A stretch of DNA of 64,000 nt from an uncultured bacterium (GCA_903885965.1 CAISKQ010000035.1:3926-67925), one strand, 5' to 3'; numbered from the stretch's first letter, positions 4,963 to 48,240 are shown. Made by a program: numbers and translations. The notes: generated by a model from the letters alone, not told the origin.

Positions 4963-4969
4963 AAGACCC

Positions 4970-5036
4970 TACGAAAATACAAAATAAATACAAAAGTACA
5001 AAAAGTTTCTCATCGCATTTATTTCGTATTTTCGTA
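4970..5036 (+). repeat. Long intercistronic stem-loop between pheS and pheT (22 bp inverted repeat, 2 mismatches, 23 nt loop) built from TACGAA/TTCGTA units
   Basis: 4970-4991 pairs with 5015-5036. Checked base by base. Confidence 0.6.
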
Positions 5037-5041
5037 TTTTT

Positions 5042-5072
5042 GCCTGCCTCGACGGTAGGCGGGTAAAATTTT
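5042..5072 (+). terminator. Hairpin GCCTGCC-tcgac-GGTAGGC followed by TTTTGTAA; possible attenuator or partial terminator between pheS and pheT
   Basis: 7 bp stem with one G-U pair. The same stem sequence plus 'TTTTGTAA' recurs at 20583-20620. Confidence 0.35.
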
Positions 5073-5115
5073 GTAATTATGTAGGTGCTAAAGTAAATTT
5101 GTAATTTGTAGAACT

Positions 5116-10120: not shown

Positions 10121-10135
10121 GCTAGCTGCTAGCTT
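10119..10135. repeat. Perfect palindrome AAGCTAGC-T-GCTAGCTT overlapping the stop codon of the membrane-protein gene; further TAGCT repeats follow
   Basis: Seen directly in the sequence. The short palindrome is unlikely to be an RNA hairpin (1 nt centre), so a protein-binding site is more plausible. Confidence 0.3.
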
Positions 10136-10201
10136 CATTAGCTGTTAGCTTTTAGGAAGTAAAATAATTTTTTTCAATAATTTCTAAACGACAACGATCG
10201 T

Positions 10202-12238
10202 ATGAATAATAGTGAAATTGCTTTTTTTGCAAAAACTAATTTTCGAAATCAAGAGAGGGTCTTCGGAATCAAAACCGACGATAGACGAAGGCATATGTAT
10301 ATCATCGGAAAAACCGGTATGGGAAAAACTAACCTGCTGGAAAATTTGGTGGTGCAAGACATTCGCAATGGGCATGGAATTTGTTATATCGATCCTCATG
10401 GTGACACAGCCGAGAAACTGCTCAAAGCAATTCCGACGAACAGAATAAATGATGTTATCTATTTAAATCCTTCCGATCAAAATTTTCCACTGGCTTTCAA
10501 TGTTATGGAATCAGTTGATCCAGATTACAGGCATCTTGTCTCATCTGGACTTATTGGGGTTTTCAAGAAGATTTGGGCCGATTCATGGGGACCTCGTTTG
10601 GAATATATCCTGCGAAATGCAATCTTGGCACTTTTGGAATATCCAGGCAGCACATTGCTCGGAGTGACTCGAATCTTGGTGGATAAAAAATATCGAGAAA
10701 GAGTAGTTGATAAAGTTACTGACCCAGTAATCAGACAATTTTGGGTGGATGAATTCCCGAAATGGAGCGACAAAGTTTTGCAAGAAGTCGTCTCGCCGAT
10801 CCAAAACAAAGTCGGTCAATTTCTTTCAAGTTCACTCATTCGAAACATCGTTGGTCAAACTCAGTCATCTTTTGATATTCGAGATATTATGGATTCTCGG
10901 AAGATCCTTATTTTAAACTTGTCCAAGGGGCGTATCGGAGAAGACAACAGTGCGCTTTTGGGGGCTATGATGATCACGAAAATTCAGCTAGCTGCCATGG
11001 GTCGCGTTGACATTGAAGAAGACACCCGAAATGATTTTTATCTTTATGTGGATGAGTTTCAAAACTTTGCTACAGAGTCATTCGCAAACATCTTATCGGA
11101 AGCTCGAAAATATCATCTTAATTTGATTTTAGCAAATCAATATATTACCCAGATTGATGAAAAAGTTCGCGATGCCATCTTTGGTAATGCCGGAACAATA
11201 GTTTCTTTTCGCGTTGGCGCAATGGATGCAGAATTTTTGGAAAAGGAATTCGAACCAGTTTTCATGCAAAATGATATTGTCAATTTGCCGAAATATAACG
11301 TGTATCTGAAATTGATGATTGATGGTATTGCAGGGGATGCATTTTCTGCAAAAGTTTTACCGCCGGTACGTATTGAAGATACAATAGAAAATGAGCAGAA
11401 AATAATTGCTGCCTCAAGAGAAAAATATGCCTCAAGCAAAGATGAAGTTGAGGATAAAATCTCAAGATGGTCAGGGATTATGCCAGCAGCTGGCTTTCAG
11501 ACTGTTAATAAGCCACCCGTGGCTTCATATGGCCCGAACCCAGTCATTATTCAGCAACAGCAGCGCCCTCAGCAGGCTTATGCGTCTCAAACTCAACCAG
11601 GGTCAAATCCAAGGCCCATGGCGCAACCAGTGTTTAATTCTGCCCCTGTCAGGCCTCAGCAGGCCACTGTCGCCCAGAAGGCGCCCTTAGTCAATCAGCC
11701 ACAGCAATTTCAACAAGCTCCGGCACCCGTGACTAAACCTCAAGTGCAACCCATTGAGGAAAATCAAGATTATTACGTTAAACCGATTGACACCCGGCCT
11801 AGGTTTGATGCTATTTGTGATATGTGCAATGATCATATTCAAGTGCCATTTCAACCAGACGGATCGCGTCCAACTTTTTGCAAAGATTGTTTAAAGGAAT
11901 ATCAGCGCATGACTGCCAAAGAAAAACTTATGCAGGAACAAAAAATGCAGCGACAACACGAAGATAAACAAGGGGATGAATATCAGCAACAACCAGCTGC
12001 GCAGCCAAGCAGGATTCCTCGACAGGAGGTTCCACGGGTAACGCCGCAACCCACTAGCGAACCTGCTCAAAAAAATGTGCAGCAAAAAACCTATGCGCCG
12101 CAAGAAAGACCTATGTCACTTTCGCAGATGCAATATATTGCTCCAAAAAAATTCAACTCGCAGCGTCAACGGCCGAATGTAAATTTGGATGAAGTTCGCA
12201 GTTTGATAAATTCTTCACAGCAAAGAAGGGAAGAATAG
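10202..12238 (+). CDS. TraD/TrwB/VirD4-like (type IV secretion coupling-protein family) P-loop ATPase with a Q/P-rich C-terminal region and a terminal CxxC...CxxC zinc-ribbon-like motif
   Basis: Walker A 'IIGKTGMGKT' followed by 'YIDPHGD', and a DExx-like 'LYVDEF'. Residues ~430-600 are low-complexity Q/P-rich. The C-terminal 'CDMCNDH...FCKDCL' is zinc-ribbon-like. Confidence 0.6.
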   Translation: MNNSEIAFFAKTNFRNQERVFGIKTDDRRRHMYIIGKTGMGKTNLLENLVVQDIRNGHGICYIDPHGDTAEKLLKAIPTNRINDVIYLNPSDQNFPLAFNVMESVDPDYRHLVSSGLIGVFKKIWADSWGPRLEYILRNAILALLEYPGSTLLGVTRILVDKKYRERVVDKVTDPVIRQFWVDEFPKWSDKVLQEVVSPIQNKVGQFLSSSLIRNIVGQTQSSFDIRDIMDSRKILILNLSKGRIGEDNSALLGAMMITKIQLAAMGRVDIEEDTRNDFYLYVDEFQNFATESFANILSEARKYHLNLILANQYITQIDEKVRDAIFGNAGTIVSFRVGAMDAEFLEKEFEPVFMQNDIVNLPKYNVYLKLMIDGIAGDAFSAKVLPPVRIEDTIENEQKIIAASREKYASSKDEVEDKISRWSGIMPAAGFQTVNKPPVASYGPNPVIIQQQQRPQQAYASQTQPGSNPRPMAQPVFNSAPVRPQQATVAQKAPLVNQPQQFQQAPAPVTKPQVQPIEENQDYYVKPIDTRPRFDAICDMCNDHIQVPFQPDGSRPTFCKDCLKEYQRMTAKEKLMQEQKMQRQHEDKQGDEYQQQPAAQPSRIPRQEVPRVTPQPTSEPAQKNVQQKTYAPQERPMSLSQMQYIAPKKFNSQRQRPNVNLDEVRSLINSSQQRREE

Positions 12239-12383
12239 CAAGCCATTGCTTGAAAGAATATGGAAAAAGATGCGTAGAACTGATTATGTGCAAGTATATC
12301 TATATTGAATTGAATTAAGCAACAAATTTAAGAAAATAAATCTGATTCTTTCTAAGAGACTCAAATCTTATTTAAAAGAGTGT

Positions 12384-12605
12384 ATGAAAAATAAGTTTTT
12401 AACTTTTTTGTTAATAATTGGCTTGCCAATAGTTGTTGTAGCTATTATTTATATTAACCTTTCCAAAAATTCAAGTCAGGACGCTGCAAGTCCAGCTTCC
12501 TCATCGGTCAGTAGTAGCACTTCCTCCAGTCAAAAGAGTTATGCAACATCTACACAATCAACAAAAAATTCCGCACAACCGACAAAAAGTACGCGTGTTT
12601 CCTAG
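12384..12605 (+). CDS. Small signal-anchored Ser/Thr-rich protein
   Basis: 73 aa. Hydrophobic N-terminus 'FLTFLLIIGLPIVVVAIIYI' then a low-complexity S/T-rich tail, followed by a clean terminator. Confidence 0.35.
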   Translation: MKNKFLTFLLIIGLPIVVVAIIYINLSKNSSQDAASPASSSVSSSTSSSQKSYATSTQSTKNSAQPTKSTRVS

Positions 12606-12625
12606 GAATTAGTAGACATAAGATT

Positions 12626-12668
12626 AAAACATCTCACTAATATAACAGTTGAGATGTTTTTTGTATCG
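12626..12668 (+). terminator. Rho-independent terminator (AAAACATCTCA / TGAGATGTTTT + T-run)
   Basis: 11 bp perfect stem, 13 nt loop, then TTTTTTG. Confidence 0.6.
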
Positions 12669-12721
12669 CATAACTGGCAAATCTGATATAATAAATAACA
12701 TAAATACAAATATATTAATAT

Positions 12722-13792
12722 ATGAATCGGAAAATAATCGAATTAACTTTGAGTATATTGACAATGGTTTTTGCATTTATATCTTGGTGGTCTGTTGCTC
12801 GAATCTTTGATGTTTCCGGTGCAAGTAGTTGGACGTCTTCAATGATATCTTTTATATTCTATCTTGTCTTGATTTGTTTGGATATTGCATTATTTACTGA
12901 TATTGTTTTGCTAGAACTATTGTTGACTGGTTCTCTAGTCTTGGGCGTGGTCTTTACGGGTAGCTTGTGGCATCTTTTGGGTGCAATTATTGGCAGTTAT
13001 TTTTTGTTTTTATCTTCTCGAAAAATTCGTCGAGATTTTAAATTGAACGTGAAAATTGATTTTCAAAAATCACTTCGGGCTGGAAAGGCAATGATGATTC
13101 TAGCGATTTCACTTGTTATTTCAGTTCAATATTTTTCGATTGTGAATCGGCTCGATGGTCAGATACTAATTCCGCGCATGGCGATAGGTGGTATTTCCAG
13201 TAAGATTGCTCTTAAGATTTTATCTTTAACCGATCAAAATTTTAAATCACTGGAAAATGCGAACATTACAGTCGATGACTTTATCCTGCAAACTCAAAAA
13301 AATCAAATCGCAAAGCAAAATTTGCAAACTTCTGATTCCAGTGTTTCTCAAATGGTTGAGCAGGAATTGGATAAACAAAACATATCTCCAGCTGATCGTG
13401 AGCAACTTCGAGCTCAAGCAGCTGATAAAATAAATAATTTAAATTCGCAGATTAACAGCGATGAGCAAGCACTCATATTGAAGGGTGGGAGAGATCAACT
13501 ATCAACACTTGTTGGTAGAAACGTTCAAGGATCTGAAAATGTTTCAAACGTCATGGCAGAACTTGTTAGCAAAAAAATTGAAAATACTTTCACTCCTAGC
13601 GTCACTGGGCAGCAGCGCTCATCTTCTTTTGCGGGAGTACTTGCTGGGATATTATTCTTCACTGTCCTTTCTATTGGCTCTTTGCTAAGTTTCATTTTTT
13701 TTGGTCTGAGTTGGCTAATATTTTTACTTTTAACTAAGTTTAAATTTATTGAAATCAAAACGATAACAGTCGAAAAGGAAATAATCTTGTAG
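12722..13792 (+). CDS. Membrane protein with central coiled-coil/Q-rich region, unknown function
   Basis: Multiple hydrophobic segments at both ends with a polar Q/N/S-rich middle; no recognised domain. Confidence 0.45.
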   Translation: MNRKIIELTLSILTMVFAFISWWSVARIFDVSGASSWTSSMISFIFYLVLICLDIALFTDIVLLELLLTGSLVLGVVFTGSLWHLLGAIIGSYFLFLSSRKIRRDFKLNVKIDFQKSLRAGKAMMILAISLVISVQYFSIVNRLDGQILIPRMAIGGISSKIALKILSLTDQNFKSLENANITVDDFILQTQKNQIAKQNLQTSDSSVSQMVEQELDKQNISPADREQLRAQAADKINNLNSQINSDEQALILKGGRDQLSTLVGRNVQGSENVSNVMAELVSKKIENTFTPSVTGQQRSSSFAGVLAGILFFTVLSIGSLLSFIFFGLSWLIFLLLTKFKFIEIKTITVEKEIIL

Positions 13793-20620: not shown

Positions 20621-20799
20621 AAAAGAAAAATTAACCCTTAATTTTGGCAAATAAAAAGAGATGGGCACACAAGCGTTAAAAATTGCTTGATTGTAGCACC
20701 CTATTATACTCCTTTTCCGCCCAAAAGTCAAGACTACCGCAAAAGCGGGGGATGGTATATGGTTAACTAAAGACAAAAGGCATTGTTATATTGATACAC

Positions 20800-20863
20800 T
20801 GTTACATTGTCAGGGATACAAAATAACAATGCGCATCTATAATAACAATATAGCAATGTAACA
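20800..20863. promoter_or_regulatory. Inverted repeat TGTTACATTG (20800-20809) / CAATGTAACA (20854-20863) plus AACAAT direct repeats, just upstream of the GT4 gene
   Basis: Perfect 10 bp arms, and each arm is itself near-palindromic. The right arm ends 11 nt before the ATG at 20874. Confidence 0.4.
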
Positions 20864-20873
20864 ATTTAGCAAT

Positions 20874-26429: not shown

Positions 26430-26480
26430 GCGGATGGTACTTTATATATATGACAGTCTTTTGATAATTAGTTATTTTAA

Positions 26481-26508
26481 AATACCCAATATGCTTGGGT
26501 ATTTTTTG
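26481..26508 (+). terminator. Rho-independent terminator (AATACCCAA-tatgc-TTGGGTATT + TTTTTT)
   Basis: 9 bp perfect stem, 5 nt loop, T-run. Confidence 0.65.
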
Positions 26509-27323
26509 TTGTCACATTTTTAGATGTAAAAGGTTGTGCGACACTAAAGTGGGTAAGTCATTGAGAAGAGGTGGTTGTATTTTCTGAATCCTAATCATGG
26601 CCGTAAGTTGCATTTGAAAGCGGTATTAATTTGAGATTTCCAATTGCTTTGATATGTGCTTAATTAAATCTATCATGCGCATATGTAAATTGGATTTTGT
26701 CGAAAAATATTTTTTTTAAAAATAATTATAAATATAATTACAAATTTGAATTTCATTGGCAAAATTTTAGATGATCCAAATCATTGAATTAGCTATATAT
26801 TTATCCTTAGAATAGCTTTTGCATAAAATGTGATACTTGAGTACCAAAAATGAATTATATGTCAGCAAAGGGTCAATATTTGGACCAAAAATAGCTAAAA
26901 ATCACCCAAAAAGACGCTCAAAATAATGGCTTATCTGAGCCAAAAAACGACGCTCAAAATTGACCTGCAAGGGGCCTTGGATTGAGAAGTGATACACTTA
27001 TACCACTACATATGGCTTATTTAAAGCTCAATTTTGGCCTAGGCATAATATTGATAAAAATATAAAAAGAAAGGGATATAGGTTAAGGAAATAAATAGAA
27101 AGCGAGCTAAATCTGAACTATTAATGGGTATGTAGGTGAGTGGGTAGTTACTGATGTATAAGTAGCTATATTATTGTAAACAGTTAAAGCTTCGAAGATG
27201 TGGTAGCATCTGTAAAATTGAATAATGCTTAGTAGGGACGCAGTTAAATTAATACTATGTCGTGAAAGATATATTGTGCGACGTTGTCTATAAAAACAAA
27301 ATAACAGTCACCTAACCCATTAG

Positions 27324-27710
27324 TTATTTTTTGTCTTGATAATTTTTAATGGCGGCATGCAAAGCATCAGCGGCAAGGTTACTGCAATGCATTTTTGCCG
27401 ACGGAAGACCACCCAACTCTTCAGCAACGCTTTTATTGGTGATGGCAAGTGCTTGCGAAATTGTCTTTCCTTTTGCTAGATCAGTAGTCATTGAGGAGGT
27501 TGAAATTGCTGCTCCACAGCCTAGTGTTTCAAATTTAACATCTTTAATTATTTCTTGCCCTTTTTTGTCTTTTTTAACCTTAATATAAAGACGCATAATG
27601 TCTCCACATTTTGGATTACCGACGGTTCCAATGCCATCAGCATTTTTAATTTTTCCCTGATTGTGAGGACGCGTAAAGTGCTCCATCACTTTTTTGGTGT
27701 ATTTTTGCAT
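27324..27710 (-). CDS. Fe-S cluster assembly scaffold protein (IscU/NifU N-terminal domain family)
   Basis: Three conserved Cys in 'NPKCGD', 'LGCGAAI' and 'HCS'. Confidence 0.85.
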   Translation of the reverse strand: MQKYTKKVMEHFTRPHNQGKIKNADGIGTVGNPKCGDIMRLYIKVKKDKKGQEIIKDVKFETLGCGAAISTSSMTTDLAKGKTISQALAITNKSVAEELGGLPSAKMHCSNLAADALHAAIKNYQDKK

Positions 27711-27716
27711 ATGTTT

Positions 27717-27825
27717 CTACGAATTACGAATTTTTACGAATGTACTAAGATGAAATAAATTATAGATTATTTTTTAACTGAAAACGAATCGAATTCGTAC
27801 ATTCGTACTCATTCGTAATTCGTAG
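27717..27825 (-). repeat. Long intercistronic hairpin filling the whole nifS-nifU gap (29 bp arms, 3 nt internal mismatch, 51 nt loop) built from TACGAA/TTCGTA units
   Basis: 27717-27745 pairs with 27797-27825, checked base by base. The 3' arm ends 6 nt before the nifU start codon. Confidence 0.6.
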
Positions 27826-27828
27826 TGA

Positions 27829-29052
27829 TTACCTAAAGTCTGCTAATACGTTACCGGATATTTTTCGAAGACGTTTTACGACTTCCTTAGTTTTAGTGAT
27901 AACGATATCCAACTCTTTCTTTGTGGTGTGCTTGCCAATTGTCAGTCTTAAACTTCCATGAGCTTGTTCATGTTTGAGTCCGAGTGAAAGCAGGACGTGT
28001 GATGGATCGAGCGCTCCAGATGAGCAAGCAGAGCCTGTGGATGCTGCAATTCCATCCAAATCAAGTGAGAGGATTAAGCCTTCGCCTTCAACATCGTCAA
28101 AACGAAAGTTAGCATTATTGGGAGATCTTTTCTCGGCAGAGCCATTAAGATATGACTTAGGAATTTCTTTCAAGACCTTCTTGATAAGATAATCCCGCAA
28201 TGCGGTTATTTCTTTGATATCTTTTTGCGTGGCTGGCGTTTTGATGGCGTTAATTGCTTGTCCCAAACCAACGATTCCTGGCACATTATGGGTTCCGGCG
28301 CGCATTTTGTATTCCTGGTCTCCACCATCCTGAATGCGCTTAATTGGAGTTCCTTTGCGAACATACAAAAGACCAACTCCTTTGGGTCCATAAATCTTGT
28401 GCGCTGACATTGAAAGCAAGTCGACTCCGATTTCATCAACATCGCAATTAAAATAATTGATTGCCTGTGTGGCATCAGTATGAAAAGAAATCCTTGGTAA
28501 TTTTTCCGTCGCTCGCTCAATGTTAATTTTTTTGAGTAATTTTCCGATTTCAGCAATTGGTTGAACAGTGCCAATTTCATTATTTACATACATCACGGAA
28601 ATCAAGATGGTATTGGCAGTAATAGCTGCCTTGATGTCTTTAACTGAGATAAGTCCTTCTTTGTTAGGAGAAATAAAGGTAACATCGGCAAGTCCATCTT
28701 TTTGGGCAAATTTGCATGCATCAAGTACGCAGTGATGTTCAAAAGCGGTAGTGATAATGTGAGGTTTCTCAGTTACCTTTCTAGTAATAGAATTATACGA
28801 ACGCAAACTCCCCTTTACAACTAAATTATTACTTTCAGTTGCGCCTGAAGTGAAAATAATTTCAGAAGGACTGGAGCGAAAAAATAAAGCTGCTTTTGCT
28901 CGAGCGTCATCTACTGCCTCCAGCGCCTCTTGCCCAAAACCATGCACACTCATAGCGTTACCAAAATTTTCGGAAAAATATGGCAGCATAGCCTCTAAAA
29001 CTTTTTTATCCACTGGTGTGGTGGCAGCGTAGTCTAAATATATTTTTTTCAT
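27829..29052 (-). CDS. Cysteine desulfurase (class V aminotransferase, NifS/IscS family)
   Basis: PLP-lysine motif 'SMSAHKIYGPKGVG' and active-site 'GSACSSG' loop. Confidence 0.9.
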   Translation of the reverse strand: MKKIYLDYAATTPVDKKVLEAMLPYFSENFGNAMSVHGFGQEALEAVDDARAKAALFFRSSPSEIIFTSGATESNNLVVKGSLRSYNSITRKVTEKPHIITTAFEHHCVLDACKFAQKDGLADVTFISPNKEGLISVKDIKAAITANTILISVMYVNNEIGTVQPIAEIGKLLKKINIERATEKLPRISFHTDATQAINYFNCDVDEIGVDLLSMSAHKIYGPKGVGLLYVRKGTPIKRIQDGGDQEYKMRAGTHNVPGIVGLGQAINAIKTPATQKDIKEITALRDYLIKKVLKEIPKSYLNGSAEKRSPNNANFRFDDVEGEGLILSLDLDGIAASTGSACSSGALDPSHVLLSLGLKHEQAHGSLRLTIGKHTTKKELDIVITKTKEVVKRLRKISGNVLADFR

Positions 29053-29068
29053 ATATGAAGATATTATA

Positions 29069-29154
29069 TGTCATCCTGAACTTGTTTCAGGATCTTCTTC
29101 ATTTAACACTGGATGCGCTAAATTTCTGGATTCCGGATCAAGTCCGGAATGACA
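29069..29154. repeat. Complete copy of the roughly 88 bp composite TGTCAT-hairpin1-spacer-hairpin2-ATGACA intergenic element, 16 nt upstream of the nifS start
   Basis: TGTCAT + ATCCTGAA-cttgt-TTCAGGAT ... ATTCCGGA-tcaag-TCCGGAAT + GACAC. The terminal inverted repeats TGTCATCC/GGATGACA are perfect. Confidence 0.6.
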
Positions 29155-29164
29155 CATGTTTATT

Positions 29165-29554
29165 TTATTTAATTAAATCACTCAACTTAATCCCATATAG
29201 CGTTTTTTGAATTTGCATTCCGAGCTTGTTCCAAACGATGCTTGATGGACATTTTTTTTCCATAGCGCAGAATTTTCCAACACATCTCATTGGAGAGATT
29301 GGACCATCAAGAATTTCAATAATTTCTCCTGCAGTAATCTTTCTCGGCTCTCTGGCAAGGATGTATCCCCCATTCTTACCCTTAATAGAATCAATTACGT
29401 CTCCATCCCTGAGTGTTCCCAATAGTCGTTCTAAATATTTCTGAGAAACACTTTCTTCCTTTGCAATTTCTTTAATGGTTTTTTGATTCGGATAACACTT
29501 AGCTAAGTTTACAATAGCCTTAAGACCGTACTCAGCTTTTGTTGAAAATTTCAT
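29165..29554 (-). CDS. Rrf2 family transcriptional regulator (IscR-like)
   Basis: 'MKFSTKAEYGLKAIVNLA...' winged HTH plus a C-terminal Cys cluster (C..C....C). The ORF track's TTG start at 29587 is rejected in favour of the ATG at 29554. Confidence 0.8.
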   Translation of the reverse strand: MKFSTKAEYGLKAIVNLAKCYPNQKTIKEIAKEESVSQKYLERLLGTLRDGDVIDSIKGKNGGYILAREPRKITAGEIIEILDGPISPMRCVGKFCAMEKKCPSSIVWNKLGMQIQKTLYGIKLSDLIK

Positions 29555-29691
29555 CCCGTAGTAGAAATTCCAGTGGGCTTTGCCCAAAAGATTTCATGCT
29601 TAAACTAATTATTAATTTTATAGTTGTTTTTGGATTTTGTAATCCAGTTTTATATTTAAACTGGAATTCTCACTACGGGATTGTCAATCCC
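29554..29691. promoter_or_regulatory. 5' region of the Rrf2 gene: inverted repeat 29554-29574 / 29660-29680 (9+9 bp with a 3x3 internal loop) abutting the start codon, and perfect palindrome GGGATTG-T-CAATCCC at 29677-29691
   Basis: Seen directly in the sequence. The palindrome is a candidate Rrf2 operator in the divergent region between the Rrf2 gene and the PD-(D/E)XK nuclease gene. Confidence 0.4.
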
Positions 29692-33272: not shown

Positions 33273-33302
33273 CTAATGATTATTTTTTTAATTCGATAAT
33301 AA

Positions 33303-33344
33303 TGACATTCACTTTGATACTTTCGAGTATCAAAGTGAATGTCA
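33303..33344. promoter_or_regulatory. Perfect 18 bp-arm palindrome TGACATTCACTTTGATAC-tttcga-GTATCAAAGTGAATGTCA, between the second YerC/YecD gene and the downstream gene
   Basis: Checked base by base. A related half-conserved copy lies at 33943-33982, upstream of the same regulator gene. Confidence 0.55.
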
Positions 33345-33356
33345 CATTCTTCTTGC

Positions 33357-33887: not shown

Positions 33888-33942
33888 TATCTTTTTATTT
33901 AAAATTTTATTTCCTCAATTTTATCTCTGATTTATTTTTTTA

Positions 33943-33982
33943 GCAAACGCTTTGATACTTTCGAGTATCGAAGTAAGTGTCA
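33943..33982. promoter_or_regulatory. Second, partly degenerate copy of the GATAC-TTTCGA-GTATC palindromic site, about 60 nt upstream of the YerC/YecD paralog start
   Basis: Core CTTTGATAC-TTTCGA-GTATCGAAG with a conserved right flank AGTaAGTGTCA. Confidence 0.45.
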
Positions 33983-34021
33983 TTTTTAACTTGGCTAAAT
34001 TTCTCGTTTCTTTACGTTGTG

Positions 34022-35374: not shown

Positions 35375-35464
35375 TTTTTCTGCGGATATGCACGGATTGA
35401 TGACGGATTTTCACAAATCACGGATCAATACAAAAAAAGAAACCTCTTGAGGTTTCTTTTTTTG

Positions 35465-39163: not shown

Positions 39164-39300
39164 AATTTTGCAAGTAATAGTTTGATATATTTTATGCTTA
39201 CATGTTCATGTTTGATAGCGACGCAGTATTTACACGCAGCCCCAGTATAATTGTTTCGATTAATACAAAACTGCTGCTGCATATATTCTTAATGTAATTC

Positions 39301-39330
39301 AAATAAAAAACCCACCAAGTGGCGGGCTTT
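39301..39330 (-). terminator. Rho-independent terminator after galU (CCCGCCA-ctt-GGTGGG + TTTTTTATTT on the minus strand); also T-rich on the plus strand
   Basis: 7 bp stem with one G-U pair when read on the minus strand. Confidence 0.55.
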
Positions 39331-39336
39331 TCATTT

Positions 39337-41062: not shown

Positions 41063-41176
41063 ACTAAATCACCAAGATACAAGAAACAATAACCAAATAA
41101 TTTTTCAAATTAAAACAATTTTGATTATTGAATTTTGTGATTTGTTTGTATCTTGCTTCTTGATTATTGGTTATTT
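41063..41176 (-). promoter_or_regulatory. Conserved leader/intercistronic element upstream of rmlA, with inverted repeats built from CAAGATACAA / TTGTATCTTG and AATAACCAA / TTGGTTATT
   Basis: Shares these word blocks with 48096-48240 (upstream of rmlB) and 34865-34915 (upstream of rpmA). Confidence 0.4.
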
Positions 41177-42418: not shown

Positions 42419-42517
42419 ATCTATAAAATTTGCTTAAGTTAATTAAGAATAAAAACGATATTTAGAATACTTAAGCCAGGCGATTAGATCATAGTATTGG
42501 TAAAATTAAAATAATCA

Positions 42518-42605
42518 TGTCATGCTGAACTTGTTTCAGCATCTTTATTATAGAGAACTTTATAAAACAAAGAAAATAGATCCTGAAATAAATTCAGGAT
42601 GACAC
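42518..42605. repeat. Second complete copy of the composite TGTCAT-hairpin-spacer-hairpin-ATGACA element, between glyA and rmlD
   Basis: TGTCAT + ATGCTGAA-cttgt-TTCAGCAT ... ATCCTGAA-ataaa-TTCAGGAT + GACAC. Relative to copy A, hairpin 1 carries compensatory changes C-G to G-C. On the minus strand, hairpin 2 plus a T-rich spacer look like the rmlD terminator. Confidence 0.6.
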
Positions 42606-42610
42606 GGGAA

Positions 42611-48095: not shown

Positions 48096-48240
48096 AAAAA
48101 TTTTATCAAAGACACAATAACCAAGATACAAACACCAAACAAGATTTAATAATCAATTTTCAAATATTCAAACAGTTTGTATTTTTGGATCTTGAAATTT
48201 GGAATTTGTTTGGTTATTGCTTCTTGTGTCTTGGTTATTA
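48096..48240 (-). promoter_or_regulatory. Leader element upstream of rmlB sharing AATAACCAA / CAAGAAGCAA / ACAAACAAAT ... TTGTATCTTGGTTATTG blocks with the rmlA leader
   Basis: Minus-strand words 'ACCAAGATACAAAC' and 'TTGGTTATTGCTTCTTG' recur at 41063-41176. Confidence 0.4.

Follow-up and report, generated by a model that had tools for sequence, protein, structure and literature searches.

A palindromic hairpin between iscS and iscU of a Moranbacteria genome as a probable copy of a dispersed heptamer foldback family

Several systems are known in which short repeats form hairpins between bacterial genes or in which long hairpins separate cistrons. The REP, BIME, and REPIN repeats of proteobacteria, mobilised by RAYT (Y1) transposases, are short extragenic modules that occur as inverted pairs, as solo copies, and in clusters. 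The bacterial MITEs, namely Correia in Neisseria, RUP in pneumococcus, and ERIC/IRU in enterobacteria, are about 70-150 bp long and possess terminal inverted repeats of about 26-32 bp. Correia, RUP, and ERIC insert beside genes at TA-type targets, vary between strains, and form mRNA hairpins that can be cut by RNase III or RNase E; like REP sequences, they are transcribed along with adjacent genes. The STRRs of cyanobacteria are long direct tandem arrays of heptanucleotide repeats, for which we know of no function. Integron attC sites are palindromes with imperfect pairing, in which conserved 7-nt boxes are combined with unpaired spacers and a variable loop; they lie directly after genes and act as folded single strands. 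At the RNase III sites of phage T7 and in the shunting of the CaMV 35S RNA, a long stem with internal loops is positioned between cistrons, with a stop codon just before its base and a restart just after it.

Here, we compare with these systems a hairpin between the Fe-S assembly genes iscS and iscU, located in a window of 64 kb (the whole stretch of DNA that was analysed, 64,000 nt). We consider it probable, at roughly 60%, that this hairpin is one copy of a dispersed DNA foldback family of the REP/BIME or MITE kind in Patescibacteria, which is not tied to Fe-S genes.

The homologues of its IscS place the window in Candidatus Moranbacteria (Patescibacteria). On the minus strand, the gene for a cysteine desulfurase (iscS/nifS, 27829..29052, 407 aa, Aminotran_5, stop codon at 27829-27831) is followed by the gene for a scaffold protein (iscU/nifU, 27324..27710, 128 aa, NifU_N, ATG at 27708-27710), and an Rrf2-family regulator is encoded upstream of iscS in the same orientation (29165..29587, minus strand). 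The 118-nt gap between iscS and iscU is occupied by a palindromic element of 109 nt (27717..27825, minus strand), which leaves free only 3 nt next to iscS and 6 nt next to iscU, with TCA and AAACAT as the flanks. Its arms, 27717-27748 and 27794-27825, are 32 nt long, 88% complementary, and 45 nt apart, and constitute the top inverted repeat of the whole 64-kb window. The original prediction, made from the sequence alone, had given arms of 29 nt with 26 pairs, which are contained in the 32-nt arms, and had placed the start of the repeat 3 nt after the nifS stop and its end 6 nt before the nifU ATG, which are the distances that follow from the ORF coordinates 27829-29052 and 27324-27710.

Each arm consists of four heptamers. 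The 5' arm of the mRNA, which adjoins the iscS stop codon (27793..27825), reads C-TACGAAT-TACGAAT-GAG-TACGAAT-G-TACGAAT on the minus strand, with the canonical spacing of 0/3/1 nt between the units. The 3' arm of the mRNA, which adjoins the iscU ATG (27717..27749, belonging to the same minus-strand transcript), reads C-TACGAAT-TACGAAT-TTT-TACGAAT-G-TACTAAG on the plus strand, with the fourth unit degenerate. Both arms exhibit the 0/3/1 unit spacing, and the order is an arm of TACGAAT units (F), the loop, and an arm of ATTCGTA units (R). The variable, AT-rich loop (27750..27792, minus strand) contains the extra degenerate units AACGAAT and CGAAT as well as the block TTAACTGAAAACGAA. Seven of the 11 exact TACGAAT/ATTCGTA heptamers in the window lie inside the 109-nt element. 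Folding of the minus-strand RNA of 27700-27840, a check proposed together with the original prediction, yielded one long hairpin of -38.8 kcal/mol, compared to a mean of -19.1 kcal/mol (sd 3.5) for shuffled sequences (z = -5.7), and none of 200 shuffles folded as well.

A second, decayed copy of the family was found in the pheS-pheT gap (4969..5111, plus strand), 6 nt after the stop codon and 4 nt before the ATG. Its F arm comprises TACGAAA/TACAAAA units at 4970, 4978, 4989, and 4997, and its R units, TTTCGTA/ATTTGTA, are located at 5022 and 5030 (inner) and at 5097 and 5104 (outer), followed by G. One arm of this copy contains an insertion of about 60 nt, which carries a GC hairpin. It had been noticed at the outset that the iscS-iscU hairpin shares units with the pheS-pheT hairpin; the four F and four R units found there bear this out, and this clue was the key to the family.

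Metagenome contigs of JGI were scanned with the three-unit pattern CTACGAAT-N0-4-TACRAAT-N0-6-TACRAAT, which was matched in at least 120 contigs. This pattern forced C-TACGAAT in unit 1, and TACRAAT in units 2 and 3, of one arm per contig, so that statistics on units 1-3 and on the outer C are biased, and left free the fourth unit, the spacings, the partner arms, and the orientation. Among the matches listed, 109 of the 144 distinct arms had a spacing of 0/3/1 or 0/4/1, out of the far wider range that the pattern permitted. The unforced fourth unit, which follows after one spacer base, had C at position 3 in 143 of these 144 arms, and G or A at position 4 in 105 and 29 of them, respectively, again among the matches listed. 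The arm is therefore defined as C-TAC(G/A)AA(T/A) repeated four times, with spacings of 0-1, 3-4, and 1 nt, and both arms in the window fit this definition. Throughout the family (L088-L207), C3 of the unit is almost invariant and the adjacent G is replaced by A in about 20% of the unforced units; in two contigs (L118 and L124), the variant is present in all four units of one arm and not in the partner arm. Apart from position 2, the heptamer is also similar to the tRNA T-loop TTCRAAT, probably by coincidence.

The pairing of the arms was strongly polar. Among the matches listed, close-lying arms were arranged as F-R in 63 cases, R-F in 1, FF in 5, and RR in 1, with loops of 0-165 nt (median 19) whose sequences were unrelated, and 103 of the 240 arm clusters had no partner within 250 nt. 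Even the three copies on one contig (L102) had unrelated loops, although their arm spacers were alike. Among the matches listed, the loop of the window copy was shared only by an orthologous copy in a relative (L005), in which the block TTAACTGAAAACGAA is present in inverted orientation; a 12-mer in common with another contig (L123) could be due to chance.

The GC content of the contigs that carry family members ranged from 0.32 to 0.65 among the matches listed, and one of these contigs (L150) belongs to the Komeilibacteria/Parcubacteria. Judging from these assignments, the family is found in Moranbacteria, Komeilibacteria/Parcubacteria, and further contigs. Its density varied, with up to seven arm clusters in 14 kb (L102 and L107) and two elements in the 64-kb window, and it was absent from most of 80 unselected genome loci. 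A stricter four-unit pattern had no match in the IMG/VR viral contigs, and blastn with the element had none in phage and plasmid collections. The arm sequence was not found in the searchable literature, and a search for reports on repeats in this phylum returned none that was relevant. The TACGAAT heptamer foldback family is widespread and apparently undescribed.

The original prediction had treated the hairpin as a feature of the Fe-S gene pair. This part was not supported, as the same inverted arms of four heptamers were observed at the S3-L16, L14-L24, S8-L6, infA-rpmJ, ftsX-like, and pheS-pheT sites and at further unrelated junctions. Among the matches listed, 13 of the 52 paired elements were closely flanked on one strand, by a stop codon no more than 15 nt upstream and a start codon no more than 15 nt downstream, and a start codon was this close in 28 of the 52. 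After 68 of the 214 distinct outer arm ends among the matches listed, an ATG-initiated ORF of at least 80 aa began within 25 nt, with the distance from arm end to start codon peaking at 4-10 nt. For comparison, gaps of 30 nt or less make up only 1.6% of the non-coding DNA in the window. Instead of targeting, this strong bias toward stop-start junctions could be due to selection for a function.

The S10-spc-alpha ribosomal-protein cluster accounted for 13 of the 120 contigs among the matches listed. One of these (L102) carries intact elements at S3-L16, L14-L24, and S8-L6, and eroded ones at tuf-S10 and L15-SecY. Where they held an element, orthologous ribosomal junctions were 77-121 nt long, compared to 0-20 nt in some other genomes, and the genomes differed in which junctions of the ribosomal operons carried elements. 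In the S10-spc-alpha cluster of L102, about 10 of the 23 junctions were structured and 60-240 nt long, which is unusual in this operon, where coupling is normally tight.

A composite subtype with a GC clamp, CCGAAAGCG...CGCTTTCGG-T-ATG, was observed at no fewer than three different junctions, namely infA-rpmJ (L088), ahead of an ftsX-like gene (L133 and L188), and elsewhere (L200), and also in L141. The presence of this subtype at several junctions indicates that whole elements, and not only units, were copied between loci. In this subtype, two ATTCGTA units are placed inside the loop of the clamp. A single base separates the clamp from the start codon in L088, L133, and L188, where the stop codon lies 3 nt upstream of the element (TAA-CCC-element-T-ATG).

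The search for the same arms in other genomes of the lineage, which had also been proposed as a check, gave a divided answer: a homologous element was kept at the iscS-iscU junction in two relatives, flipped in one of them, whereas six held other repeats or a 47-nt remnant, and gaps of 6-17 nt were seen further out. The junction was identical in three other metagenome contigs. In 80 loci from species-representative genomes, the gap ranged from overlapping genes to 176 nt, and at least five unrelated repeat types were present at the junction in relatives. The two homologous elements are those of L004 (92% IscS identity), which consists mostly of TACAAAT/ATTTGTA units with the pairing retained, and of L005 (90% IscS identity), which is an eroded copy. 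The L005 copy was identical to the window antisense strand at 87 of 110 positions, compared to 73 of 120 for the sense strand. As it aligns well only in reverse, the element was evidently flipped in place or re-inserted.

The relatives that appear close in protein terms are old in DNA terms, since their identity to the window at four-fold degenerate iscS sites is just 0.41-0.48. The elements of the window and of L005 are 79% identical, while the four-fold degenerate iscS sites are saturated (0.42 identity), so that the element must have been conserved above neutrality or homogenised. Either would fit a host function as well as a selfish element.

In the six other relatives (87-93% IscS identity), the element was replaced or absent at iscS-iscU. 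The gap of L084 contains a different hairpin, those of L085, L087, and L006 contain repeats of TATAAAGTY units, and that of L086 is 47 nt long, with the arm reduced to its first ~14 nt. L086 was considered as an empty site and rejected, because the retained ~14 nt of the arm identify it as a deletion derivative; no true empty site with alignable flanks was found. Some further relatives have hairpins of yet other units or GC-rich repeats at this junction, and the short gaps of the distant relatives are A-rich and lack a Shine-Dalgarno sequence. The gaps in relatives point to an iscS-iscU spacer of about 9-16 nt before insertion, and the gap into which the window copy lodged was probably about 9-13 nt.

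The family shares several features with REP, BIME, and REPIN sequences beyond the inverted pairs, solo copies, and clusters. Its copies lie within operons between genes and would be co-transcribed as hairpins, are multi-copy, vertically inherited, and slowly eroding, and have a GTAG/CTAC motif at an end. In contrast to REP, the TACGAAT arm is an array of four heptamers that does not form a palindrome by itself (0 and -3.0 kcal/mol for the folding of single arms), the GTAG is located at the 3' end of the module instead of the 5' end, and the distance between the arms is free (0-165 nt). An association with RAYT was rejected, because GC-rich hairpins such as AGTCGAGGACGGTCCTCGACT, and not TACGAAT arms, border the RAYT-like genes of L087, L113, and L188. 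The L087 locus contains an IS200-like gene (10125-10535) and a RAYT-like Y1 transposase gene (12310-12948), both bracketed by the REP-like hairpin AGTCGAGGAC(G/C)GTCCTCGACT, and the RAYT-like genes of L113 and L188 have GC-rich flanking hairpins of their own.

The element is similar to MITEs in its size, its location beside genes, its variable presence, and its terminal inverted repeats (32 nt, 88% complementary), which here end in C-TA...TA-G. It differs from them in that the internal sequence is not conserved between copies, being shared across loci only in the GC-clamp subtype, in that the arms are composed of tandem heptamers, and in the extreme bias toward stop-start junctions. Unrelated loops within one contig, between arms with similar spacers, are likewise unusual for MITEs. 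No direct repeat was seen at the ends beyond the ambiguous palindromic C-TA...TA-G itself, of which the outer C was partly forced by the scan pattern, and the fetched loci contained no parent insertion sequence that shared these ends.

The resemblance to the cyanobacterial STRRs lies in the intergenic repeated heptamer units, and plain tandem arrays occurred among the scan matches in L182, L184, and L106. In contrast to STRRs, the TACGAAT family has exactly four units per arm, a fixed unequal spacing, and an inverted partner. As in attC sites, there are boxes, unpaired spacers, and a variable central loop, whereas the arms contain no GTTRRRY and four boxes instead of two, the flanking genes are core genes and not cassettes, and no integrase is evident. 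The geometry is also similar to that of the T7 and CaMV hairpins. This resemblance would be functional only; those are unique, orientation-specific RNA signals and not dispersed DNA repeats. TIGR-Tas guide arrays, which are 36-nt dual-spacer units beside a Tas gene, were considered and rejected as they do not fit.

The window contains additional repeats in its spacers. Another repeat type, TGTCAT-CC(G)GA...TCAGGATGACA / GTGTCATCCTGAA...TTCAGCATGACA, forms intercistronic hairpins at 29053-29164 and 42419-42610, the former of which occupies the Rrf2-iscS gap (-34.5 kcal/mol, z -4.6). The gap-filling spacers 41083-41176 and 48132-48240 have AATAACCAA.A..CAAGAAGCAA.A.ACAAACAAAT in common and form long, weak hairpins of a further repeat family. 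The spacers 2116-2266 and 2675-2746 share the hairpin ATACTTCCATATATCCATTTATGGAAGT, and the spacers 33273-33356 and 33888-34021 share the hairpin GATACTCGAAAGTATCAAAG, with a perfect 19-bp stem (33303-33344) in 33273-33356. A hairpin of TARCAAT/ATTGNTA heptamers at 8-nt spacing (20777-20873) abuts the ATG of a glycosyltransferase gene; it is kept in L085 with a different unit count and is replaced in L084 and L086 by a solo ATTCGTA arm and a GC-rich repeat.

Although the genome is otherwise compact, the 894 nt at 26430-27323, downstream of iscU, lack any ORF of at least 50 aa. Within this region, a block of about 125 nt (26899-27043) has approximately 80% DNA identity in eight relatives, which include L008 and L010, whose IscS is only 74-75% identical to that of the window. 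Because synonymous sites are saturated, this block is conserved. Two copies of TTAAATAAGCCAT and a GGTATA..TATACC stem lie inside it; Rfam gave no match for it, and it may represent a small RNA or a site on the DNA. In L084-L086, an acetyltransferase gene separates iscU from this block; the window has no such gene there, and L087 has an unrelated 218-aa ORF in its place.

Other explanations of the iscS-iscU hairpin have to be weighed against the dispersed DNA family. The stems start 0-6 nt past stop codons and end 4-10 nt ahead of start codons with striking regularity, as would suit a selected RNA element, that is, a stop-start bridge for termination-reinitiation, an RNase III-type processing site, or a stabiliser that sets the IscS:IscU (and ribosomal-protein) ratios. 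The F-R arrangement reads alike on both strands, so that a stem forms in every transcript whichever the orientation; as the transcript has UACGAAU in its 5' part and AUUCGUA in its 3' part either way, the inversion in L005 is compatible with such an element. The same reading is favoured by the persistence of the window, L004, and L005 copies despite saturated synonymous sites, by the three TACAAAT/ATTTGTA unit pairs of L004 in which pairing is intact, by the unrelated hairpin families at the junction in other relatives, and by iscU, which has no Shine-Dalgarno sequence outside the stem (GUAGAAACAU-AUG). In addition, the stem is laid out as a 15-bp stem, a 3x3 internal loop, and a 15-bp stem, which we take to be similar to known RNase III substrates. 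However, in 37 elements for which the direction of transcription was deduced from the flanking ORFs, the folding of the sense strand did not differ from that of the antisense strand (15 lower, 22 higher; Wilcoxon p = 0.71), and the sense strand had no excess of G-U over A-C pairs (78 vs 75 G-U pairs). Several copies, among them those of L118, L124, and L172, gave a good fold only on the antisense strand. Among 25 canonical 4+4 elements, a G/A variant at position 4 of a unit went without a matching change in the partner unit (Fisher p = 1), variants of one arm being uncompensated in the other, and the arm spacers were complementary at 18 of 83 positions, which is chance level. These folding and compensation tests lend no support to a stem selected in the transcript and point to a constraint on the heptamer units. 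The frequent arms without a partner among the matches listed, the six relatives that at a similar distance have no element, and the distant ones that manage with gaps of 6-17 nt also count against an RNA element. Rfam 15 gave no match in the window at gathering thresholds, and the sub-threshold matches were only miRNA-precursor hairpins (25.8 and 22.3 bits against thresholds of 70 and 83). Taken together, a selected RNA element is a rather unlikely explanation.

Alternatively, the heptamer arrays may be a host site at the DNA level, bound by a conserved protein (nucleoid-associated, of the gyrase/IHF type as at the E. coli BIMEs, or an attC-type recombinase), with the hairpin being secondary. 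The conservation is polar and at the level of the unit, with C3 near invariant and G4 changed to A in 29 of the 144 unforced fourth units among the matches listed; the arm spacing is fixed although the spacers are not complementary; variants are often homogeneous in one arm only (L118 and L124); inversion is tolerated (L005); and the boxes, unpaired spacers, and variable loop recall attC. In contrast, the free distance between the arms is ill-suited to a fixed complex on double-stranded DNA, no candidate protein gene is linked to the arms, the neighbouring genes have core housekeeping functions and are not cassettes, and the absence from most of the 80 unselected loci is odd for a general chromosome-organising site; we consider this explanation improbable. 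An operator for IscR/Rrf2 was rejected because the same arms occur at ribosomal-protein, pheST, ftsX-like, and other junctions. The loop contains TATAAT on its minus strand and long stems can pause RNA polymerase, either of which might suggest a transcription signal in the gap, be it an intrinsic terminator, an attenuator, or an internal promoter located within the loop. A consensus scan of 27711-27828 gave no sigma-70-like promoter and no terminator-like site, and the stem is AU-rich and lacks a U-tract, being followed by GAAACAUAUG, unlike the ordinary terminators of this genome, which have a GC stem and a U-tract (e.g., 35375-35464 and 39164-39336). Since, in addition, the loops are unrelated between family copies and the loop is flipped in L005, we give a transcription signal very little credence. 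Even less credible is a palindrome that arose by chance or was made locally, by heptamer slippage and an inverted duplication in place unrelated to other loci. AT-rich intergenic DNA readily yields short tandem units and the junction hairpins of relatives are built of different units, but none of the 200 shuffled sequences folded as well and the same four-unit architecture recurs in at least 120 contigs across the whole range of GC content.

According to the dispersed-family reading, modules of four TAC(G/A)AA(T/A) heptamers, two of which face each other with their CTAC ends outward around an arbitrary loop, would constitute a copy-and-paste DNA element that settles preferentially in very short stop-start gaps of operons, and whose copies would in time come and go, be inverted, and erode. 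That the dispersal is due to mobility is our inference. No transposase or partner protein and no autonomous element with these ends was found among the fetched loci, and the 64-kb window contains no Y1 transposase. F...R arms about 1.3 kb apart (the far-apart pairs in L088 and L143) were considered as an autonomous element and rejected, as they enclose S11/S13 or other ordinary genes and no transposase.

One such element would have lodged in the short iscS-iscU gap. In the mRNA, the base of the stem would bring the iscS stop codon and the iscU start codon together, and a ribosome that ends on iscS, 3 nt before the stem, would open the base and free the strand upstream of the AUG. This ribosome could then restart on iscU, and translational coupling would survive the insertion. 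Restart across the stem base would explain why the insertion is tolerated. In this model, the mRNA hairpin is probably a by-product that still allows coupling. Cleavage by RNase III is possible, and some effect of the hairpin on coupling, processing, or stability is plausible, because it lies in a co-directional Rrf2-iscS-iscU string and would form in a polycistronic mRNA.

A more far-reaching reading, which we hold as a tentative possibility, is that the TACGAAT family is a lineage-wide functional module of Patescibacteria that would be sequence-specific, placed at stop-start junctions, and read by a protein or a nuclease, or else a new junction-homing mobile element with heptamer-array ends. 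As a functional system, it may organise the expression of long operons via hairpin-bridged reinitiation or cistron-separating cleavage.

Because the genomes of Patescibacteria are very small and densely packed, the expenditure of about 100 nt on an intergenic hairpin needs explaining, and this need is greatest in the ribosomal-protein operons, which usually show tight translational coupling. The family provides a handle on the spread and persistence of repeats in reduced genomes without recognisable transposases, as well as on the translation of downstream cistrons without Shine-Dalgarno sequences. In annotation, such hairpins should not be taken as gene-specific regulators. If the family were indeed a functional system or a new mobile element, it would mean that the genome and operon architecture of bacteria with reduced genomes has a layer not yet described.
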